DNA from: Eledone cirrhosa
Taxonomy: Eukaryota
Length of the DNA stretch: 64,000 nt
Assembly (NCBI GenBank): GCA_964016885.1
Contig: OZ024747.1
Coordinates: forward strand, 54,994,001-55,058,000
Reading direction: 5' to 3'
The notes beneath the pieces are model-generated. The model was not told the origin of the DNA and did not search any database. It was given only the letters and a program-made list of their open reading frames with translations. A program made the position numbers and the translations under genes. This document shows positions 5,070 to 63,865 of this stretch, piece after piece. Each line of letters opens with the position of its first letter. The stretch's first letter is position 1.

Positions 5070-5395
5070 ATTGGTGTTGGATGCTTAACGCGTCCATATA
5101 CGGTAGGCCGTATGAGCACTAGATGCTCTCATATAGCAGAGTAAGATATCACAGAAAAAAAGTGAATTAGTGTTGCGACGAATGGAATTTAATGGACATA
5201 TTACAATCGTTTCTCTGGTGACCAGCTCAAGGCACGATCGATGTGATGATCGAACCTAACTCTGAATTACGCAAGGTCCTCAGATACGTCTTGATTCTAC
5301 GAAGCAGACCTGGTCGCCAGAGAAACGATTGTAATATGTCCATTAAATTCCATTCATCGCAACACTGATTCTCTTTTTTTCTGTGATATTTATAA
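5070..5395 (-). mobile_element. Fold-back element, family J, with a decayed HHR 3' half
   Basis: Inverted arms 5146-5227 / 5308-5390 containing ctgg-tcg-ccag a GAAA cgattg TA; tail 5070-5145 ends in (TA)n. Confidence 0.55.
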
Positions 5396-8128: not shown

Positions 8129-9172
8129 GGTCAATTAGTTAAGCCTTCATTACGTTTATTGGTTGGTGACGGGAGTTTCGCTATATCAGCTTATGGTTCG
8201 ATCTGGCCCGAATCTGGAATCAAAAGCTCGTCGGACCTCTGTCGTTGTAGTGTTCATTCTATCATTACAACAGCAGAAATCCGATGAGCTTTTGATTCCA
8301 GATTCGGGCCAGATCGATACAGATCGAACCTTGAGCTGATCAATAGCGAAACGCACGCTACCAATGAATAAACGTAATGAAGGGTTAACTAATGTCCTTG
8401 ATTGGCAGTATCGGGAGAGGGTCGGACGCCATGCTTTGCAGCAAAGAGTTACGGCCCTTGCCATTCTGAGTTCAAATCTCGCCGAGGTTAACTTTGCCTT
8501 TCATCCTTACGGGGTCGATAAAATAAAGTACCAGTAATGCACCGGATGATTGCTGGCCTTGTGCCAAATGTAGAAACAATTATATTTAAACTCGGTGGAT
8601 TGGCAGAATCGGTAGAGGGCCGGATGCTATGCTTTGGCGCACAGAGTAACGGCCCTTGCCATTCTGAGTTCGAATCCCGCCGGGGTTAACTTTGCCTTTC
8701 ATCCTTACGGGGCCGATAAAATAAAGCACCAGTAACACATGTGTCAAAAGTAGAAACAATTCTTTTTCTTTAATTACAAAGCCTATATTTTTTTTCTCGT
8801 TTAACTGTAAATATTGTTGAGTTTTTTTCTAATTTCTTTGATTTTATATTCAGTTTTTTTTTAATGTTCTGACGTAGTACATTAGAATTCTTAAAATATT
8901 TTCTGGTATTATAATACTTTTACATTTGCCGCCATCATTTCTTGTTTTATTTTTAACTATACTTCATTTTTGAATTCTGAGCAATGGTTAACTTAGCCTT
9001 TCATCCTTACGGAGCCGATAAAAATAAAGTACCAGTAATGCACTGGTTAATTGCTGGCCTTTTAGAAATTATATTTACACTCTATTTAGCTCTACACCTC
9101 GCTACAGACATGAACCTAAACATCGAGTGCTCACCTCGGTTAACCTACAATAACTTCACCTTACACTCCCTG
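8129..9172 (+). mobile_element. HHR fold-back element, family D, copy 1, split by nested SINE and repeat insertions (8400-9070)
   Basis: Inverted arms 8129-8250 / 8265-8399 with HHR-like folds at 8165-8237 (-) and 8278-8362 (+); stem II closes gct/agc. The tail resumes at 9072-9172. Confidence 0.7.
8399..9070 (+). mobile_element. SINE cluster (two near-full copies, one partial) plus an AT-rich repeat
   Basis: Copies at 8399-8582, 8594-8762 and 8986-9070. Confidence 0.82.
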
Positions 9173-9736: not shown

Positions 9737-9741
<5 letters not shown>

Positions 9742-10062
9742 TCTGAACATTAATCAGTATACACTGAGGAGGAAAATCTCAGAGCTGTATGGGAGCCTCC
9801 CAAAAGTCAGCGCAAAATTGACACAGAGGAGACTGATGTTAGCTGGACATGGTCACCGTCATCCAGAATTGACATTGCACTCAGTGCTCTTGTGGGAGCC
9901 CCTACATGGAGACACTGGAAGAGGAAGACCAAGGTAACGTATATTGATGCCCTAATGACAGATACTGGTCTGTTGGAGACGCAGGACATGGCAGCGATAA
10001 TGTGGGACAGAGACCGCTGGAGAGAACTCGTCCATGGATCTCGGAAATTTTACCCGCCCTAA
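9737..10062 (+). mobile_element. RTE-clade LINE 3' fragment
   Basis: Translation ELYGSLPKVS...RRLMLAGH.HRHPE...LLWEP.HG..GRGRP..TYID.L..DTG...DRDRWRELV is typical of the RTE C-terminus; flanked by (TA)n. Confidence 0.75.
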
Positions 10063-10063
10063 A

Positions 10064-10120
<57 letters not shown>

Positions 10121-11595: not shown

Positions 11596-11599
<4 letters not shown>

Positions 11600-11821
11600 T
11601 TTTGAGTTGACTTTTGGGAGGCTCCCATACAGCTCTGAGTTTTTCATCCTCAGTGTATACTGATTAACGTTCAGAGCCATCATCAGCATTCTCGTGTAGC
11701 ACCCATCCACCATCTGAGGAGACTGAGGTTAGCTGGAGATGCAGGATATGGCAGCGATAATGAGGGACAGAGACCGCTGGAGAGAACTCGTCCATGGATC
11801 TCGGGAATTTTACCCGCCCTA

Positions 11822-11822
<1 letters not shown>
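11596..11822 (+). mobile_element. RTE-clade LINE 3' fragment with a 5' inversion and an internal deletion
   Basis: 11596-11710 is an inverted upstream segment (DGCYTRML.MALN); 11716-11822 is forward and matches parts of 9826-10060. Confidence 0.75.
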
Positions 11823-11874
<52 letters not shown>

Positions 11875-17029: not shown

Positions 17030-17544
17030 TTTGTGCAATTTAGTCTATGACTTCAGCTATACCATTTAAGGGGTTTTGTCTTTGCGTGCAATTGTTCTCC
17101 ACGCTCCACATATGACGTATTATCGTCGTTTTTTCCGTTCATTGCCAGAGGACGTCTCTACGAACCACCTAAGAGAACATTAGTCTACGACTTCTTTTAT
17201 ACCATAAACGTGGTCCTGTCTTTGCGTGTAATTGTTTTCAGCGCTCCTATTAATGACGTATTATATTCGTTTTTTTCCCGTTCTTTGCCAGGGAACATTT
17301 CCACGAACCAAAGTATCGTCTTCCTGTCTTCCTCCGGTTGCAACGTTTTTTGAAATATCCACTTCTGCGTTTCAGATTGACTTTGTTAGTTTCAGAAGAT
17401 TCCGTTAAGGGTGAAAGCAGCGATTCTTTGCTTAAACTTTAATCTGTTATTTTAATAAATATTTGCTCTACGGTTCTTATATATTTGATATATATTTTCC
17501 TTATCGAGCCCTCTTTGGATTTTAGTCTTCAAATTTATTATTAT

Positions 17545-35301: not shown

Positions 35302-35303
<2 letters not shown>

Positions 35304-35440
35304 CGAAGGAAATGTGGTAAGGAACCAGATGGACCATAACGCACCGAAGTACTCAATACTTAGGCTAGTAGAGTGAGTAATAGGAACGAGTAGGACCCCG
35401 ACGGCTGAGCCCAAGCTGTTTCGACGGGGTCCTACTCATT

Positions 35441-35442
<2 letters not shown>
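35302..35442 (-). mobile_element. Family E element with only the 3' half of a hammerhead
   Basis: Reverse-complement homolog of 36387-36527; short inverted arm at 35425-35442; in (TA)n. Confidence 0.7.
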
Positions 35443-35498
<56 letters not shown>

Positions 35499-35501
<3 letters not shown>

Positions 35502-35757
35502 TTAATATAGATGAGATTCTACAGGACTAGAACTGTTTCATTCATTAGAAATCATCAGGAATCTGGGTATCAAAAAAAAAATATAAAAAAATAAAAAATA
35601 AAAAAAAAATAAAAAAAAATACCCAGATTCCTGATGATTTCTAATGAATGAAACAGTTCTAGTCCTGTAGAATCTCATCTATATTAAAACTTTTATACTC
35701 TGCTATGTATTGAGTACCTTACTTACTGTGGTTACCTCCGATTCAACCCGGAATAAC

Positions 35758-35760
<3 letters not shown>
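35499..35760 (+). mobile_element. HHR fold-back element, family A, copy 1
   Basis: Perfect inverted repeat 35499-35570 / 35619-35690 around an A-rich spacer, plus a 70-bp tail; embedded in (TA)n. Confidence 0.8.
35625..35675 (+). ncRNA. Type I hammerhead ribozyme, family A (mirror copy on the - strand at 35514-35564)
   Basis: agattc CTGATGA tttc-taat-gaat GAAA cag-ttctagtc-ctg TA gaatct. Canonical core, 6-bp stem I, GUA site. Confidence 0.85.
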
Positions 35761-35805
<45 letters not shown>

Positions 35806-35982
35806 TGTATATCTGCGCATGTATTGTTTTTTTGGCGTTAATATACTTCCTCATTTTTGAATTAGTTTGAGTATTTCTTTAGAACTGCTGGAGTAGCAAC
35901 CTAACATATATCTCAGACTCGGATGGTGATTATCGCTAAATACTGATATTGGTTGGATTATCAATATTAGTATTATTGGGTA

Positions 35983-36109
35983 CCCACTGAAGAGTTATAA
36001 GAACCCACTTGAATATATATCTGTTGATCTTATACGAGCTCCTACATAAATTGGTATAATTTCACCCAAATTGTAGGAATCTTATAATGAAACGAGACGT
36101 CCGTCTGGG
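35983..36109 (+). ncRNA. Hammerhead with a 77-nt stem II loop insertion (family F, element about 35805-36280)
   Basis: ccca CTGAAGA gttataaga-[77 nt]-tcttataat GAAA cg-agacgtc-cg TC tggg. Internal hairpin tcctaca/tgtagga. Confidence 0.7.
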
Positions 36110-36279
36110 AAGAGATATATTCGATATGTCTCATATGAAATAATACAGCCAATTTTCCACACAATACATTTAGTTAGGACCCCGAACGTTTAATTAGGAA
36201 TATACTCACTTATTTCCTAATGTTTGTTGAGTGAGTTGGAATTTGGCCGGAGTATCGCTAAAAGCTTTCTCCGATAATG

Positions 36280-36527
<248 letters not shown>

Positions 36528-41389: not shown

Positions 41390-42545
41390 TTCAGCATTAT
41401 CGGTAGAGTATCGGACGCCATGCTTTGTCGCATAGAGTTACGGCCCTTTATTATCTGAGTTCAAATCCCGCCGAGGTTAACTTTGCCTTTCATCCTTACG
41501 GGGTCGATAAAATAATGTACCAGTGACGCACTGGGGTCGATTTAATCTACGTTTCGCTTTGTCGCATAGAGTTACGGCCCTTTATTATCTGAGTTCAAAA
41601 TCTCGCCGAGGTTAACTTTGCCTTTCATCCTTACGGGGTCGATAAAATAATGTACCAGTCACGCACTGGGGTCGATTTAATCTACGTTTCGCTTTGTCGC
41701 ATAGAGTTACGGCCCTTTATTATCTGAGTTCAAATCCCGCCGAGGTTAACTTTGCCTTTCATTCTTACGGGGTCGATAAAATAAAGTACCAGTCACGCAC
41801 TGGGGTCGATTTAATCTACTTTTCGCTTTGTCGCATAGAGTTACGGCCCTTTATTATCTGAGTTCAAATCCCGCCGAGGTTAATTTTGCCTTTCATTCTT
41901 ACGGGGTCGATAAAATAAAGTACCAGTCACGCACTGGGGTCGATTTAATCTACTTTTCGCTTTGTCGCATAGAGTTACGGCCCTTTATTATCTGAGTTCA
42001 AAATCTCGCCGAGGTTAACTTTGCCTTTCATCCTTACGGGGTCGATAAAATAAAGTACCAGTCACGCACTGGGGTCGATTTAATCTACTTTTCGCTTTGT
42101 CGCATAGAGTTACGGCCCTTTATTATCTGAGTTCAAATCTCGCCGAGGTTAACTTTGCCTTTCATCCTTACGGGGTCGATAAAATAATGTAGCAGTCACG
42201 CACTGGGGTCGATTTAATCTACTTTTCGCTTTGTCGCATAGAGTTACGGCCCTTTATTATCTGAGTTCAAATCTCGCCGAGGTTAAATTTGCCTTTCATC
42301 CTTACGGGGTCGATAAAATAAAGTACCAGTCACGCACTGAGGGTCGATTTAATCTACTTTTCGTTTTGTCGCATAGAGTTACGGCCCTTTATTATCTGAG
42401 TTCAAATCCCGCCGAGGTTAACTTTGCCTTTCATCCTTACGGGGTCGATAAAATAAAGTACCAGTCACGCACTGGGGTCGATTTAATCTACTTTTCCCTC
42501 CCCCCCAAAATTGCTGGCCTTGTGCCTACATAAGAAACCATTATT
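41390..42545 (+). repeat. Single SINE with an internal 134-135-bp segment amplified to 8 tandem units
   Basis: tttgtcgcatagagttacggccc recurs near 41423, 41557, 41692, 41826, 41960, 42095, 42229 and 42364; one head and one tail. Confidence 0.9.
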
Positions 42546-53921: not shown

Positions 53922-54252
<331 letters not shown>

Positions 54253-54629
54253 TCTATATATATATATATATCCGCTCGTGTAAGGCATTGGACAGGATAG
54301 AAATAATGTAATTTGATTCATTAAAACTTTTTGATAACGACATATTTTCTCTACTACAATACATGCAATAGCGCGCATACTCACGCACAAACACACACAG
54401 ATATATATACATATGTATATATATATATAAATGTGTGTGTGTGTGTGTGGTGTATGTTGTGTGTGTGTGTTCGTAGCTATGGATGTATGTATATATATGT
54501 ATGCATGTGTGTATGTATGAACACAACGTGTTCACCCTTTGAAACTCGAAAACTGGAAAAAAGTATTAAATTATAAATCAAATAGAATTACAGAATATAA
54601 ACTACTCATCAATACACATACATAGACAC

Positions 54630-56657: not shown

Positions 56658-58340
56658 AATATGACCAAAAGTTAAACAAGGTTCATTGACTAATCAATGA
56701 ATATAGTTTTACAATAGATTAGAAGCACTCAACTGTTAAAAAAAGTTTTCTGGAGTTATTAATATTAATTCAAAATATTGTTTCAAAATACAGTCTTGGC
56801 AGCCAAGACTGGAATTGAACCATCAGCACAGGTGAGGTATTTCACACATCACTTTATCTACAGATACTTTATCTACAGATACTGCCAATCCTACAAAATA
56901 TTGAGTAACTTTTTTAACTGTCGTTTACCTCTTATCGACACAGGTTATATATATATATATATAAAAATATATACGATATTAAATAAATGGAAACTATATT
57001 TATAAAACCATATTTATTTCATTATATATATTTCAGGGATATCATATTAACAATATGCTATGCCTTCCTCAGACAAAATACAATATAAACAGTTTTATAG
57101 ATAAATAGATTTGACATACCGTACAACATCGACTTGTATTTGAAAAGTTGAATTGGCAGTGAAAAAAATGTACACAGAGAGAAAGAAAGAGAGAAAAAAA
57201 GGAAAGAAAGACAGAAAACGAAGAAAAAGAAGAAAAAGAAGAAATGCATGGAACAAAATAGAGAGATGGAAAGATAGATAAAGAGAAGAACTTCATGTAA
57301 AGAAACAGAGAGAGAGAGATATATATATAGAGAGAGGAAATAGAGATAGATATATATATAGAAAACTAGGTAGTGGGACATCCGTTGAGTAAACATATCA
57401 ATGATACATTTATTTATTTATTTATTTATTTAGCTCTAGTATTAATGTAAGGGAGATATATGTGGTTAGGAGAGAAACCAGCTGTTATATAGAGAGAAAA
57501 ATCAAAATTAACCAGACATAGGCGAGGCATAGAGGTATTAGTATGTATAACAACCAGCCACTATATTGTAAATATCAGTATTCCTGAATGAGACATGTAT
57601 CCATAATGTGTGAAAAGTAATGATCTTATGTTTAGTTTTTTAAAAAAAATTCATATGTTTATGTGATAACTACAAACATCTATGTGAATTTACATGATCA
57701 ACTCAGCAAACCCTAAGTTCACGGAAAACATTCTCATTGTGCTATAAAAATTTAAGTATACATATATGTGTATATATATACACAAATATGTATATATAGA
57801 GTCTATATTACTACTATTCTTGTCTTTACTCTACAAGATTATCTATCAAGCAGAAATAGAGAGCAGATTTCAATATATTAATAAAAAAATATATATCAGA
57901 AACAAAAACCAAAAAATAACAATAATAATAATAATAATAAATAATAATATTTAATATCGTAAATATACTCCAAATACTTGTCGAGTGCTTTTATATCAGT
58001 TATAAATATTTACTAGTTGTAACCCAACAATTTAAATATAACTTTCCATATAAAAATATATATATATTTATTTATTTATCATCATCATTTAAAGTACATT
58101 TTCCATAGGATATACAGTAGATTTGGTTTCTACTGAGGAAGGTGGCAATATTAGCACTATATAATATAACAGTGTATAAATTAAGACTAAAAACAGGAGG
58201 TTTTTATTGATTAAGCTCAGTTACATAGGTTTAACATATAGGTGGCTCTGGATCAATTCTTGTGTTATAGACTCGACTCAAGCCCTAATCAACTCATTAG
58301 GTTTGTTGGGATTCTGGTTTTGTTTGATTAAGAAGTCCAT

Positions 58341-58860: not shown

Positions 58861-58934
58861 TATAAAATAAAAGATGAAATCGAAAATGCAACTGGAGTCT
58901 TATTTTAAAAAAAATATATATATTTATTTGGTTC

Positions 58935-58970
58935 CTTTACCGGTTTCGCAGTTCTTCTGCTTTTCAAAAG
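58935..58970 (-). ncRNA. Same U3-A8 hammerhead in the inverted 5' arm of the PLE
   Basis: Reverse complement of the 63668-63703 motif. Confidence 0.72.
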
Positions 58971-59922
58971 TAGAGTTGAGATGGAGGGTCAGTGGATTTT
59001 CTCACATCTGGTTGGTCTTTGAATGCTACTTGTTTTATATGGAAAAAAGTGGCTCGAAATGCCAGGTTTTTAGAGAATAATTTGATTGATTGGTCAATAA
59101 TTATAATAAACTTCGCGCCAGTTCGGATTACAAAGTTCTTCAAACAAGGGGGTGGAATCATAGGTGAGTGTTTGAATTTCTTTTTACTTAAAAAGAACGT
59201 AATTTGATTGGTTATAAATGAAATTATGGCTGTCACGTGGACAAGTTTTCATTAAATTTCGCGCCCGTATTTGGAAATCTATTCTGTAGCCTTTTTAGAG
59301 AATTTTATGTCAAGCAAAAGATAATGGTCAAGAGAAATGGGATGGGAGAATTGTTCTGGTTCAGTGAATATGGTTAGTTCGCTGGAGTGTCAGAATTCAG
59401 ATTTTCTATTGAAATAAAGTAAAGATATATATGTTTATTTGTGTGTGTGTGTGTGTGTGTTTGTGTGTGTGTATAGGAAGATGATTCTATTAGTAGAAAT
59501 GATGGAGAGAGTTTTGTTTGTGTGTGTGTGTATGGGTGTTGTGTGTGGGTGGGGGAGGATGTTAAGATGGAGCGAATATATATATTTTGTGTGTGTATAT
59601 ATGTGTAGGAAAGTGATTCTATTAGTAGAAATGGGGGAGGGATTTGTGTGTCTATGAGGGTGGGGGTTGTCATGTGTGTGTATGGGTGTTATGTGTGTGT
59701 GGGAGTATGGGTAGCATGTTAAAATGAAGAGAATATATATATATATATTGTCTGTGTGTGTGTAGGAAAATGATTCCATTAGTAGGAATATTTTTGAATG
59801 AACTTATTCGTATTTGTTTCCTTACTTATTATTTTCTAAAGTAGCAGATGTTATGTGTGTGTATGTTTTTGTTTGGATGGTAAGCATGTTATGGTGTTGA
59901 CATAATGTATATTAAACCATAT

Positions 59923-62239
59923 CCCAGAAAAATCATTTTTTACACCAAGGCTACAGGACCCACGACACCCGGTGGCACAAACCGATTTTCAAAAACCGAA
60001 AATAATCAACCCTTCAAATACAAACCTCTCAGCCCAACAAGTAAACATTCTCTTCAAAGGACTGAAATTCACACCAACACCACAATACTCTAACCCCAAT
60101 GAGATAAATGACGATATCTCACACTTCTGTAGAAAATTACGTCTCACAGAGGAATTCTTTGACAAGGAGAATAACGATGAATCAATTGTACGGAATAAAA
60201 GCAGCTACAGCCCAACAAAAGGTAGAAACAGAGTTCTGGACAAATTTTGTGACCACATAGCTACTTTCCCATACCATGAACTACCGCAACCTAAACCCAA
60301 ACCCAACACGAGTCGAAGGGAATGGGAGATTATCCATGAACTACAAAACAATACGGACATTATAATTAAGGAAGCGGACAAGGGAAGTACTGTTATCATT
60401 ATGGAGACTGAAAAATATAAAAATTCTATGTTCTCTCTCTTACAAAATACTAATTACAATGAAAGAGTAAAAAACTACCAGCAATCAAAAACAATGACCA
60501 GATTAAACACAGTGATTTATCGATACCAGGAAGACCTAACTAAAAAGGAACGCGATTATTTAACACATTTTGAATACAAAACCAGCAACCTTTACGGACT
60601 TCCGAAGATCCACAAGTGTAAAATAATTAACGATGCCTGTAAACAATCCACCTCAGCCTGCGTGAACACACAATACACCACAGACCTTAAATTAAGACCA
60701 ATTGTAGCGGGCCCACAATGTGAAACACACAGACTGAGCAACTTTATGGACATACTACTAAAACCAATTCTCAAACACATACCAAACCTTGTAAGAGACT
60801 ATCTAGACCTCTTAAACCACCTCCCCAAATATGTCAACAACGACAGAATTATTGTGTCTTTCGATGTAGTGAATCTCTACACAATGATCCCACACCAATA
60901 CGGACTAGAAGCAATAGGATTCAGGCTAGAGAAATATTCCAATGAGATACCTGGCAGAATAGAAAAAAGCTTCATCACGGAGGGATTAAAATTTATCTTA
61001 CGGAATAACATTTTTGATTTCGATGGCAGTATTTACAAGCAAATATCGGGGACTGCGATGGGTACAAAAGCCGCTCCAACTTATGCCAACTTAGTGATGG
61101 CATACTTAGACCAGATATATGAATAGTCCAAATAAAAATACGCATTGAACTTCCACGAATATTTAATAGAGAATTGGAAACGCTACTTGGATGATTGTCT
61201 CATTCTTTGGTCCTACACACTCGGCCAACTGAAGGATTTCAAACCTTAATAAACGGCATCAATAACCACATCCAATTCACAATGGAATACAGCTAAGATC
61301 AACTCCCATTTCTGGACATCTTAATCTTAAAAAAAGACACAAATATTGAAACTGACATACACAGCAAACCAACAGACTCCAAACAATACCTGCTATTCAC
61401 TTCCAACCATCCAAAGCACACGAAGACGAACACACCTTTTAACCTAGCAAGAAGAATTTGCACAATTGTCTCCAATTATGAAACGCGAAATAAAAGACTT
61501 CAAGAATTAAAGGAAATTCTACTCGAAAGAGAGTACCCACCATTACTAATAAATAATGGAATAGAAAGGGCTAAAGCAATAGACATTGATGAATTACGAA
61601 AACAGAAACAAATTCAAGGTACGTCCAATATTCTATCATATATCTCAACACACAACCCAAGAAATGCGGAAGCTTACAACACTATTCACAAGAAGATCCC
61701 ACTACTAAAACAAAACCTAAGAATGAAAAAAAGCCCTTGAAACACACAAAATAATCAAAAACAAAAGACAACCGCAATCACTGAAAACATTACTCACCAA
61801 TGCCAAATTACCTACCACAAACGCACAACCAACTGTCAAAAAATGTGGTCGCTCTAATTGAGGAACCTGCACTCACCTCATTGAAGGCAACACGTATACA
61901 TTTAAATCAGCACAAAATTTGGCTGTAAAAAATCACTCCACTTGCTCATCAAACAATCTATTTTATGCCATTAAATGTAAAGGATGCAATGAAAATTATA
62001 TAGGACAAAGTAAACTCACACTCAGAAACAGAATGACAGTTCATCGCCAACAATTACGAGATCCAACCACGAGACAGATACCACTAAGCGCAAATCTAGA
62101 CATATGCGCAAGTAATAAGACACCCAAATCCCAAGTTTTCCCCTTTTACCTTTGCGCTGACAATACAACAGAACAAATACGAATAAATGAGGAAAATATG
62201 TTTATTCAAAAATATAGACCAGCATTAAATATGGTTTAA
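59923..62239 (+). pseudogene. Disrupted PLE polyprotein: reverse transcriptase, C-x4-C-x2-C linker, GIY-YIG endonuclease with CCHH motif
   Basis: Stops at 61124 (TAG), 61133 (TAA), about 61294 and about 61859, plus frameshifts near 61240 and 61730, where the 13-16 kb copy has sense codons. Linker KCGRSN(C)GTC; endonuclease NLFYAIKCKGCNENYIGQS...RNRMTVHR. Confidence 0.92.
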
Positions 62240-62785
62240 TATACATTATGTCAACACCATAACATGCTAACCATCCAAACAGACACATACACACACACAT
62301 AACACCTGCTATTTTAAAAAATAAAAACCCGAAATAAATAAACCTTAACATACGTTTGCGCTTACAATACAAAAGAACAAATACGAATAAGTAAGGAAAA
62401 TATGTTCATTCAAAAATATTCCTACTAACGGAATCATTTTCCTACACACACACACACGTACACACACACAATATATATATTCTCTTCATCTTAACATGCT
62501 ACCCATACTCCCACACACACATAACACCCATACACACACATAACAAACCCCACCCCACACACACACAACTCCCTCCCCCATTTCTACTAATAGAATCACT
62601 TTCCTACACATATAATCACACACAAAATATATATATTCGCTCCATCTTAACATATTCCCCCACACACAAACACATAACACCCATATACACGCGCATACAC
62701 ACAACTCCCTCCCCCATTTCTACTAATAGAATCATCTTCCTATACACACACACACAAACACACACACACAAGCACACAAATAAAC

Positions 62786-63074
62786 ATACATATCTTTACT
62801 TTCTTTATTCAATAGAAAATCTGAATTCTGACACTCCAGCGAACTAAACATATTCACTGAACCAGAACAATTTTCCCATCCCATTTCTCTTGACCATTAT
62901 CTTTTGCTTGACAAAAAATTCTCTAAAAAGGCAACAGAATAGATTTCCAAATACGGGCGCGAAATTTAATGAAAACTTGTTCACGTGACAGCCATAATTT
63001 CATTTATAGCCAATCAAATTACCTTTATTAAAAAAAAAGCCTTCGTGAGCCCCTCTTTTAAGTAAAAAGAAATT

Positions 63075-63156
<82 letters not shown>

Positions 63157-63450
63157 TATCTTTGCTTTCTTTATTTCAATAGAAAATCTGAATTCTGACA
63201 CTCCAGCGAACTAACCATATTCACTGAACTAGAACAATTCTCCTATCCCATTTGTCTTGTCCATTATCTTTTGCTTGTCATAAAATTCTCTAAAAAGGCT
63301 ACAGAATAGATTTCCTAATATGGGCGCGAAATTTAATGAAAACTTGTCCACGTGACAGCCATAATTTCATTTATAACCAATCAAATTACGTTTATTAAAA
63401 AAAAGCCTTCGTGAGCCCTTTTTTTTAAGTAAAAAGAAATGCAAACACTC
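62786..63450 (+). repeat. Approximately 370-bp direct duplication within the PLE 3' region
   Basis: catatatctttactttc...aatagaaaatctgaattctgacactccagcg recurs near 62786 and 63154. Confidence 0.8.
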
Positions 63451-63667
63451 ATGTATGAAAAAACAACCTGATCGCACCCCCCCCCCCCCCTTGTTTGAAG
63501 AACTTTGTAACGCGAACTGGAGCGAAATTTATTATAATTATTGACCAACCAATCAAATTACTTCTCTAAAACCTGGCGTTTCGAGCCACTTTTTTCCATA
63601 TAAAACAAGTAACATTCAAAGACCAACCAGATGTGAGAAAAACCGAAGACCCTCCATCTCAACTCTA

Positions 63668-63703
63668 CTTTTGAAAAGCAGAAGAACTGCGAAACCGGTA
63701 AAG
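63668..63703 (+). ncRNA. Minimal type I hammerhead ribozyme, U3-A8 core variant, in the PLE 3' region
   Basis: ctt TTGAAAA gcag-aagaa-ctgc GAAA ccgg TA aag. Stem I ctt/aag, 4-bp stem II, palindromic CCGG stem III, GUA site. Confidence 0.75.
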
Positions 63704-63865
63704 GAACCAAATAAATATATATATATATTTTTAAATAAGACTCCAGTTGCATTTTCGATTTCATCTTTTTTTCTTTATACATTCACTCGTGTAGGACACC
63801 TCGGTTATTTTTCATTTTGTAAAAAAAACCTCACCTTCTAATATATATATATATACATTATATAA

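Follow-up and report, generated by a model that had tools for sequence, protein, structure and literature searches.

Twin covarying RNA stems beside the copy ends of Hydra-clade Penelope-like elements in Eledone cirrhosa

The repeat families A, D, E, J and K found in the analysed DNA (the window, a microsatellite-rich stretch of 64 kb from the 3.0-Gb genome of Eledone cirrhosa) are end-stubs of related Hydra-clade Penelope-like elements (PLEs), and they carry a stem that is a real covarying RNA signal. The motif has the form RCTC-(variable hairpin)-TN-GAGY, with a lower stem of 4 bp, a bulge of 2 nt and a covarying upper stem, and two such stems are present per Hydra element. The position of each stem is tied to a copy end that lies about 6 nt upstream of it, and not to the 3' end about 50 nt downstream. 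The original prediction had described a conserved covarying cis RNA element for recognition or priming by the reverse transcriptase (RT), lying about 50 nt from the 3' end. A conserved covarying cis element linked to the RT start was indeed recovered, while the anchor point 50 nt downstream had to be given up. The features of the window are listed in Table 1.

Table 1. Positions of Penelope-like features in the 64-kb window
Feature	Position	Strand	Remarks
Family A, inverted short arm	35499-35564	-	
Family A, insertion, long arm	35621-35763	+	
Family A, putative type I hammerhead core	35631-35664	+	upstream of stem; read from sequence
Family A, stem 1	35697-35715	+	ACTC 35697-35700, 3-bp upper stem, GAGT 35712-35715
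Family A, stem 1, TT bulge	35710-35711	+	
Family E, stem 1	36456-36479	+	short arm ends 8 nt before stem
Family E, insertions	36387-36527; second 35303-35442		
Family D, stem 1	9079-9128	+	long upper stem, TC bulge
Family D, second copy	adjoins 20124	-	
Family K, stem 1	17465-17509	+	first pair in G-C form
Family K, second copy	adjoins 5735	-	
Family J, stem 1, corrected register	5118-5142	-	one changed 3'-arm base in window copy
Additional Hydra family, stem 1	57967-57986	+	absent from original prediction; about 70 nt from element end
Family F, atypical stem	36205-36232	+	
Family F, hammerhead core	from 35987		very long stem II loop
Large Neptune-like PLE, 5'-truncated	59906-63840	+	RT, linker zinc finger, GIY-YIG
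Large PLE, inverted arm	58865-59922		
Large PLE, minimal hammerhead	63671-63700	+	U3-A8 core variant
Large PLE, P1 (outer helix), predicted 5' strand	63749-63757	+	
Large PLE, TATAC	63776-63780	+	first copy end; short arms stop there
Large PLE, P2 (inner helix), predicted 5' strand	63787-63792	+	includes gtgt of the original prediction

Families that carry the stem

According to PMC8557442, Hydra proteins have an RWK-type motif and not GxKF/Y, DKT and not DKG, a CxCX5C linker and no CCHH, and they end in an endonuclease with terminal CxxC and CxH. The elements studied here share these protein motifs as well as the (TA)n targets, the hammerhead in the terminal repeat, the partial tandems, the inverted arm and the one-sided tail described there. 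In family A, tandem copies at 5 of 30 loci extend beyond the usual end, through a second stem (GCAC/GTGC) about 6 nt past the long-arm end, into an ORF that encodes RWR and DKT motifs. Searching the genome by pattern for the N-terminal motif of Hydra proteins gave 1466 matches (control, 0), and the tails of D, J and two further families of the window were found upstream of Hydra-motif ORFs. An RWR or RWK motif was present in the ORFs past the junctions of A, D, J, E and K, and DKT, as opposed to DKG, was read in A, E and K. The full ORF of family E has the CxCX5C linker, the terminal CxxC and CxH, and no CCHH. All five families are inserted in (TA)n and bear a hammerhead in the terminal repeat, some of the cores being variants.

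These families had been described as unrelated. They are homologous, protein identity being 34-65% across 20 families, and their treatment as unrelated non-autonomous families was rejected because tandem copies run into ORFs. A non-LTR retrozyme origin was also ruled out for A, D, E, J and K, since they continue into ORFs. In a recent preprint (bioRxiv 10.64898/2026.07.22.740005), metazoan non-LTR retrozymes are short hammerhead repeats related to PLE terminal repeats; the five families differ from them in being truncated autonomous elements with an ORF in tandem copies. The carriers of the stem are one clade of autonomous elements.

The second stem of families E and K was predicted first and then found. 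The junction was searched for as the family end followed by 6 free bases and RYWC, which gave 326 matches for E (control, 0), a single identical junction accounting for 96 of the first 100 listed, and 492 for K (control, 0), where a single identical junction accounted for 84 of the first 100 listed. The predicted junctions contained the bulge and a GAGC 3' arm and were followed by a Hydra ORF, all of which lay outside the search pattern. A DNA search with the K tail had given no match, the K junctions being found later by the pattern search, and no tandem junction was present among the 30 best-matching loci listed for E or the 30 listed for J. Family E copies are also arranged head to tail, repeating about every 3.54 kb, in arrays that include an intact ORF (C1:91476611-91487267, same genome). 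In one Hydra copy, the 5' end begins at a TA tract that precedes stem 2 by two bases.

Family F fits the Hydra stem model poorly. The 9-bp register proposed for it is the best fold of the window copy and is not kept across F subfamilies; in another subfamily the second GAGT is absent and TT-GAGT is retained. Two of 30 loci extend into more F sequence, with no ORF there. F has a hammerhead and occurs in tandem units without an ORF, and it is possibly a retrozyme mobilised by Hydra proteins. An imperfect second stem lies past the end of F (window copy, 35805-36279).

Fold of the Hydra stem and position of the copy ends

The scored set comprised 38 stems from 20 families, two stems not being identifiable. 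Five references were left out before counting (three near-duplicates, F and one disrupted), and some of the 5' arms were selected manually, for certain families with the copy ends in view. The first pair of the lower stem was G-C in 20 stems, A-T in 13 and other in 5 (38 stems; Fisher p 1e-7), while pairs 2-4 are nearly invariant and hence provide no test of pairing. The first base of the bulge was T in 37 of the 38 stems. Among the 35 stems in which the lower stem encloses 7 nt or more, upper pair 1 was Watson-Crick in 31, pair 2 in 32 against a permutation mean of 9.6 (the permutation test ignores kinship) and pair 3 in 18. Upper pair 2 occurred as G-C (12), A-T (8), T-A (7) and C-G (5). With bulge sizes of 0, 1, 3, 4 or 5 instead of 2, the counts at the first two upper pairs dropped to between 1 and 8 of 35; the genome background at random sites was 0.33.

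Two-sided swaps were found between the well-supported sister families H58055/H56644, c5/c13 and c6/c15 in a protein tree of this genome's families. G-U pairs are present in some stems, the 3' arm is near-constant across aligned TA-adjacent tails (TY, then GAGY), and the upper helix is absent from the second stem of family A. When the published Hydra consensi in the supplement of PMC8557442 were inspected by eye, the stem was clear in three of six (sea cucumber, coral), one of these three having both stems; it was imperfect in two, and in the remaining one it lies beyond the consensus end. Single stems fold weakly (z from -2.2 to +0.4 in 8 of 8 window stretches), so that the support for the stem is comparative. 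No Rfam family was recorded at its gathering score among the best 150 of 272 weak matches.

The six arm pairs first proposed (A, E, D, K, F and the large PLE) were all found at their positions, with 42-52 nt between the 3' arm and the TA tract in each case, and for A, E, D and K the proposed helix is the true lower stem. For J the stem itself held and its ctc/gag register did not: the family copies have ACTC/GAGT with a 6-bp upper stem, and the first base of the 3' arm is changed in the window copy. The YGGW motif said to follow the stem is enriched after stem 1 (11 of 19 families against 4.2 expected, a figure that ignores kinship among families), in a variable place. In a tail sample of 958 kb (the window, 80 stretches of 10 kb and 30 loci picked for family A), the TA-adjacent tails formed 864 groups, and TYGAGYR peaked at 50-59 nt with 11 groups against 0-7 in the other bins and 2 groups in that bin for the reverse-complement control. 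Counted by copies, the peak comprises 65 of 1308 tails, a figure inflated by the inclusion of 29 loci that had been picked for family A.

Contrary to what had been supposed, stem 1 does not keep a fixed distance near 50 nt from the long end. The distance ranges from 42 to 109 nt in 13 families, eight of which fall inside 40-60 nt; it is the length of the tail, the spacing between the two copy-end sites (42-109 nt). Copy ends from a random genome sample and the window were mapped next to TA tracts on junction references. As many as 72 of these 84 ends (11 families) lay at most 14 nt 5' of a stem, against 6.9 if uniform, 30 of them at stem 1 and 42 at stem 2, and 63 of the 72 were at 6-9 nt; the other 12 ends fell elsewhere, and for 9 of the 20 families the random sample yielded no mapped end. 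With all loci counted, search-chosen ones included, 302 of 332 ends were stem-linked. The modal ends are all on a TA-like stretch, overlapping the (TA)n target by a few bases. The insertions consist of a short arm and a long arm placed head-to-head. The twin stem sits just past the long end, and stem 2 is not present in the inserted long arm whose end it marks. In the window copy of family A, the last base of the short arm is the match of 35690, 6 nt before ACTC, and a TA tract follows.

Between the arms of this insertion (35565-35620) lies an A-rich filler of about 55 nt, which resembles the reverse complement of a T-rich stretch that precedes the ribozyme in longer copies. Two A tails (35736-35754 and 54230-54254) bear a second small hairpin near the long end, one pair longer in the diverged copy. 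Elsewhere in the window, other TA-inserted repeat families (9739-10071 and 11597-11823) lack TY-GAGY near their ends, and at positions 41422-42496 an abundant, putatively SINE-like repeat forms eight tandem units of 134 bp.

The large Neptune-like element

The large PLE of the window is Neptune-like, and not Hydra, by its protein motifs; it was also set by eye against published alignment rows. Its coding region is interrupted by stops and frameshifts. KGLKF, DKG and CCHH-type residues were found in it, in place of the Hydra combination of RWK, DKT and no CCHH, and its GIY-YIG domain lies above the Pfam cut-off. The linker cysteines are present, one of them having decayed in each of the two copies read. 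These motifs match those listed for Neptune-type PLEs in PMC8557442, namely a C-terminal GIY-YIG with CCHH and a CX2-5CxxC linker.

A stem common to the Hydra-type tails and this element had been proposed, but the PLE belongs to another clade and the proposed form is not shared. Its tatac/gtgta helix was 65% paired in 12 Neptune-like sequences, against a shuffled mean of 69%, with no two-sided changes. The idea that the loop varies while pairing is kept found its covariation in the Hydra stems and none in the PLE helix. The 11-mer common to D and the PLE (CACCTCGGTTA) was present in 1 of 41 D-type copies, only the window's own; its sharing is a coincidence, and chance accounts for both the 11-mer and the PLE pairing. 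A Hydra-type twin stem past the long end of the PLE was also considered and rejected, being absent from 7 of 7 junctions printed.

The ends of the large PLE fall on TATA stretches, 14 of 36 at the first site (TATAC) and 18 of 36 at the second. Copy ends were mapped in the Neptune-like families of this genome, both ends being observed for N1, N3 and N5 and one end well for N2 and N4; the metagenome elements contributed the fold only. The predicted Neptune fold consists, from 5' to 3', of an outer helix located at the start codon or over it, a U-rich single-stranded stretch ending in TATA(C), a few bases, and an inner helix with a further TA stretch in its loop, a few bases upstream of the 3' strand. 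The comparison drew on five Neptune-like families from this genome together with metagenome elements (of 78 loci retrieved, 35 were examined and 13, with a ribozyme upstream of the ORF, were folded; 7 of the 13 had an identity of at least 40%). Unconstrained folds gave the inner helix in 12 of 13 junctions and the outer helix in 12 of 13; the stretches for these 13 junctions were cut by hand, and their z-scores are therefore favourable. All seven close metagenome junctions take this fold in stretches set by rule, which extends the prediction to related elements of other animals. In six distant metagenome elements (about 30% identity) the motif was not seen by eye. The sequence of the inner helix varies between Neptune-like families.

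In the large PLE, the partner strand of P1 overlaps the start codon in tandem copies and is missing from the window copy, while the partner strand of P2 lies about 12 nt past the long end. With the outer helix closed, the minimum-energy fold was the local hairpin of the original prediction and not P2, which appears only in a stretch that excludes the 5' strand of the outer helix. It is comparison that points to P2 over the local hairpin as the likely choice in this family. In the predicted fold, TATAC is likely to be a single-stranded priming site.

MAFFT with RNAalifold returned no consensus for three mixed Neptune-like sets, and automatic consensus folding succeeded on close Neptune-like sets. 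A five-row alignment, one row of which was a wrong stretch, gave the inner helix with 4/6 two-sided changes and is not counted as support. The covariance model R1, built from three metagenome sequences, found one further junction and none of this genome's own. A looser Neptune pattern yielded mostly the same families among the first 100 matches listed, and 16 extra stretches provided two more Neptune-like junctions. The predicted Neptune-like fold is likely, and less firm than the Hydra stem.

The hammerheads of the Neptune-like families N1, N2 and N3 have the U3-A8 core swap, a variant that was reported for Schistosoma (PMC4209133). In a Neptune-like family, the first ORF and the RT ORF are in different frames, and the RT ORF lacks an obvious start of its own. 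The predicted outer helix covers or abuts the start codon in Neptune-like junctions, and folding for copying and translation may be mutually exclusive in these elements.

Proposed priming model, rival explanations and known systems

The twin hairpins in the Hydra terminal repeat probably hold the RT and so set the start of copying on the (TA)n target. The observations behind this reading are a fold that covaries, two stems and two copy ends for each element, ends that share TA-like bases with the target, and arms set head-to-head. The element RT would bind the bulged hairpin, the cut (TA)n end would pair with a short UA stretch lying immediately 5' of the hairpin, and from this stretch copying would proceed towards the 5' end of the RNA. 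Used on the two sides of one break, the two sites would generate a short and a long arm head-to-head, and only one arm of the inverted pair would bear the stretch between the sites, which is the tail. This would explain why stem 1 is seen about 50 nt from the long end and why stem 2 is never copied. Protein binding, internal initiation and the priming of both break ends at one site each are steps that we infer.

The Neptune-like PLE is likely to handle the same task with a different fold. Site 1 would be located 5' of the long helix and site 2 in the helix loop, each followed after about 10 nt by one of the two helix strands. A tentative extension, which we hold to be possible though doubtful, is a telomerase-like RNA scaffold with two target-pairing sites, each a few bases 5' of a helix, on which a protein dimer would prime both break ends. 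Hydra would build this scaffold from two direct-repeat bulged stems, and Neptune from one pseudo-symmetric helix in which each strand follows a priming site.

It is unlikely that the stems are RNA-processing signals, with a nuclease cutting about 6 nt before each of them and copying beginning at the RNA 3' ends so produced, in the manner of ordinary non-LTR elements. Such processing would be expected to give identical copy ends, and the stem is lost from the copy in both views. However, the product of a Poseidon element was unchanged by a longer RNA 3' end, which points to internal initiation (PMC11167929), and the overlap of the ends with the TA target by a few bases is what primer pairing predicts. 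Alternatively, UA-rich microhomology alone might set the ends, the stems serving cis-preferential packaging or translation of the nearby ORF; each modal end is on a TA-like stretch, and stem 2 and the Neptune outer helix are near or over the start codon. We consider this quite improbable, as these AT-rich repeats are full of TA stretches and yet 63 of the 72 stem-linked ends are at 6-9 nt, and stem 1 keeps the same spacing at a distance from the start codon.

A signal acting as DNA, read by the endonuclease that resolves the insertion intermediate, would agree with the suggestion that the tail is a product of endonuclease resolution (PMC8557442) and with the report, cited in PMC11167929, that the D. 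virilis tail is necessary for endonuclease recognition. The G-U pairs in the stems suit RNA, however, and stem 2 is missing from the inserted long arm it delimits, which makes this reading very improbable. Chance pairing, or sequence kept by descent without structure, could be argued from the short and weak helices and the nearly invariant CTC/GAG. For the Hydra stem it is contradicted by the four pair types in the upper stem, the swaps between sister families and the two predictions passed (E and K), and it retains hardly any probability. Copying set by the twin hairpins is the reading that we prefer.

LINEs and SINEs carry 3' stem-loops. Like these stem-loops and the alignment region of telomerase with its template boundary element, the Hydra stem is a small RNA structure at a set distance from the primer-pairing region. 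It differs from them in occurring twice and in being placed 3' of the start site, from which it is not copied, whereas the boundary element of telomerase is located 5' of the template and halts copying (10.1101/2025.10.16.682844).

PAc, the Poseidon PLE of Anolis, has two internal start sites in vitro with the tail between them, and its protein is predicted to dimerise (PMC11167929). As proposed for the Hydra elements studied here, its two internal starts are downstream of the hammerhead and flank the tail, and one of them is inside a stem-loop, as predicted here for Neptune site 2. The accessible text of PMC11167929 deals with this single element and contains no comparative structure and no twin bulged stems; PAc priming was reported there as non-homologous to the target, whereas the ends observed here overlap (TA)n by a few bases. 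For the Hydra clade, the accessible text of PMC8557442 describes no RNA stem downstream of the ribozyme and ascribes the tail to endonuclease resolution. PLE stubs, minimal hammerheads, the U3-A8 core, (TA)n targets, inverted arms and tails are all in print (PMC4209133, PMC8557442). The proposed two-site priming differs from the self-priming model put forward in PMC3846280. The literature searched, in which most subscription journals and Repbase reports were not covered, described neither the twin bulged stems nor the Neptune two-helix fold, and a term search of the main text of an octopus repeat annotation (PMC13282606) returned no mention of ribozymes or stems.

PLEs are the closest relatives of telomerase, and one element has so far been studied in vitro for the choice of start. 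The minimal motif, its presence twice per element and the 6-9 nt rule define exact mutants for the existing assay. The Neptune-type fold suggests that the clades meet the two-start problem with different RNA scaffolds and, if true, the scaffold model would be a general explanation for the inverted arms and the one-sided tail. The motif also identifies the clade behind thousands of short unannotated repeats.
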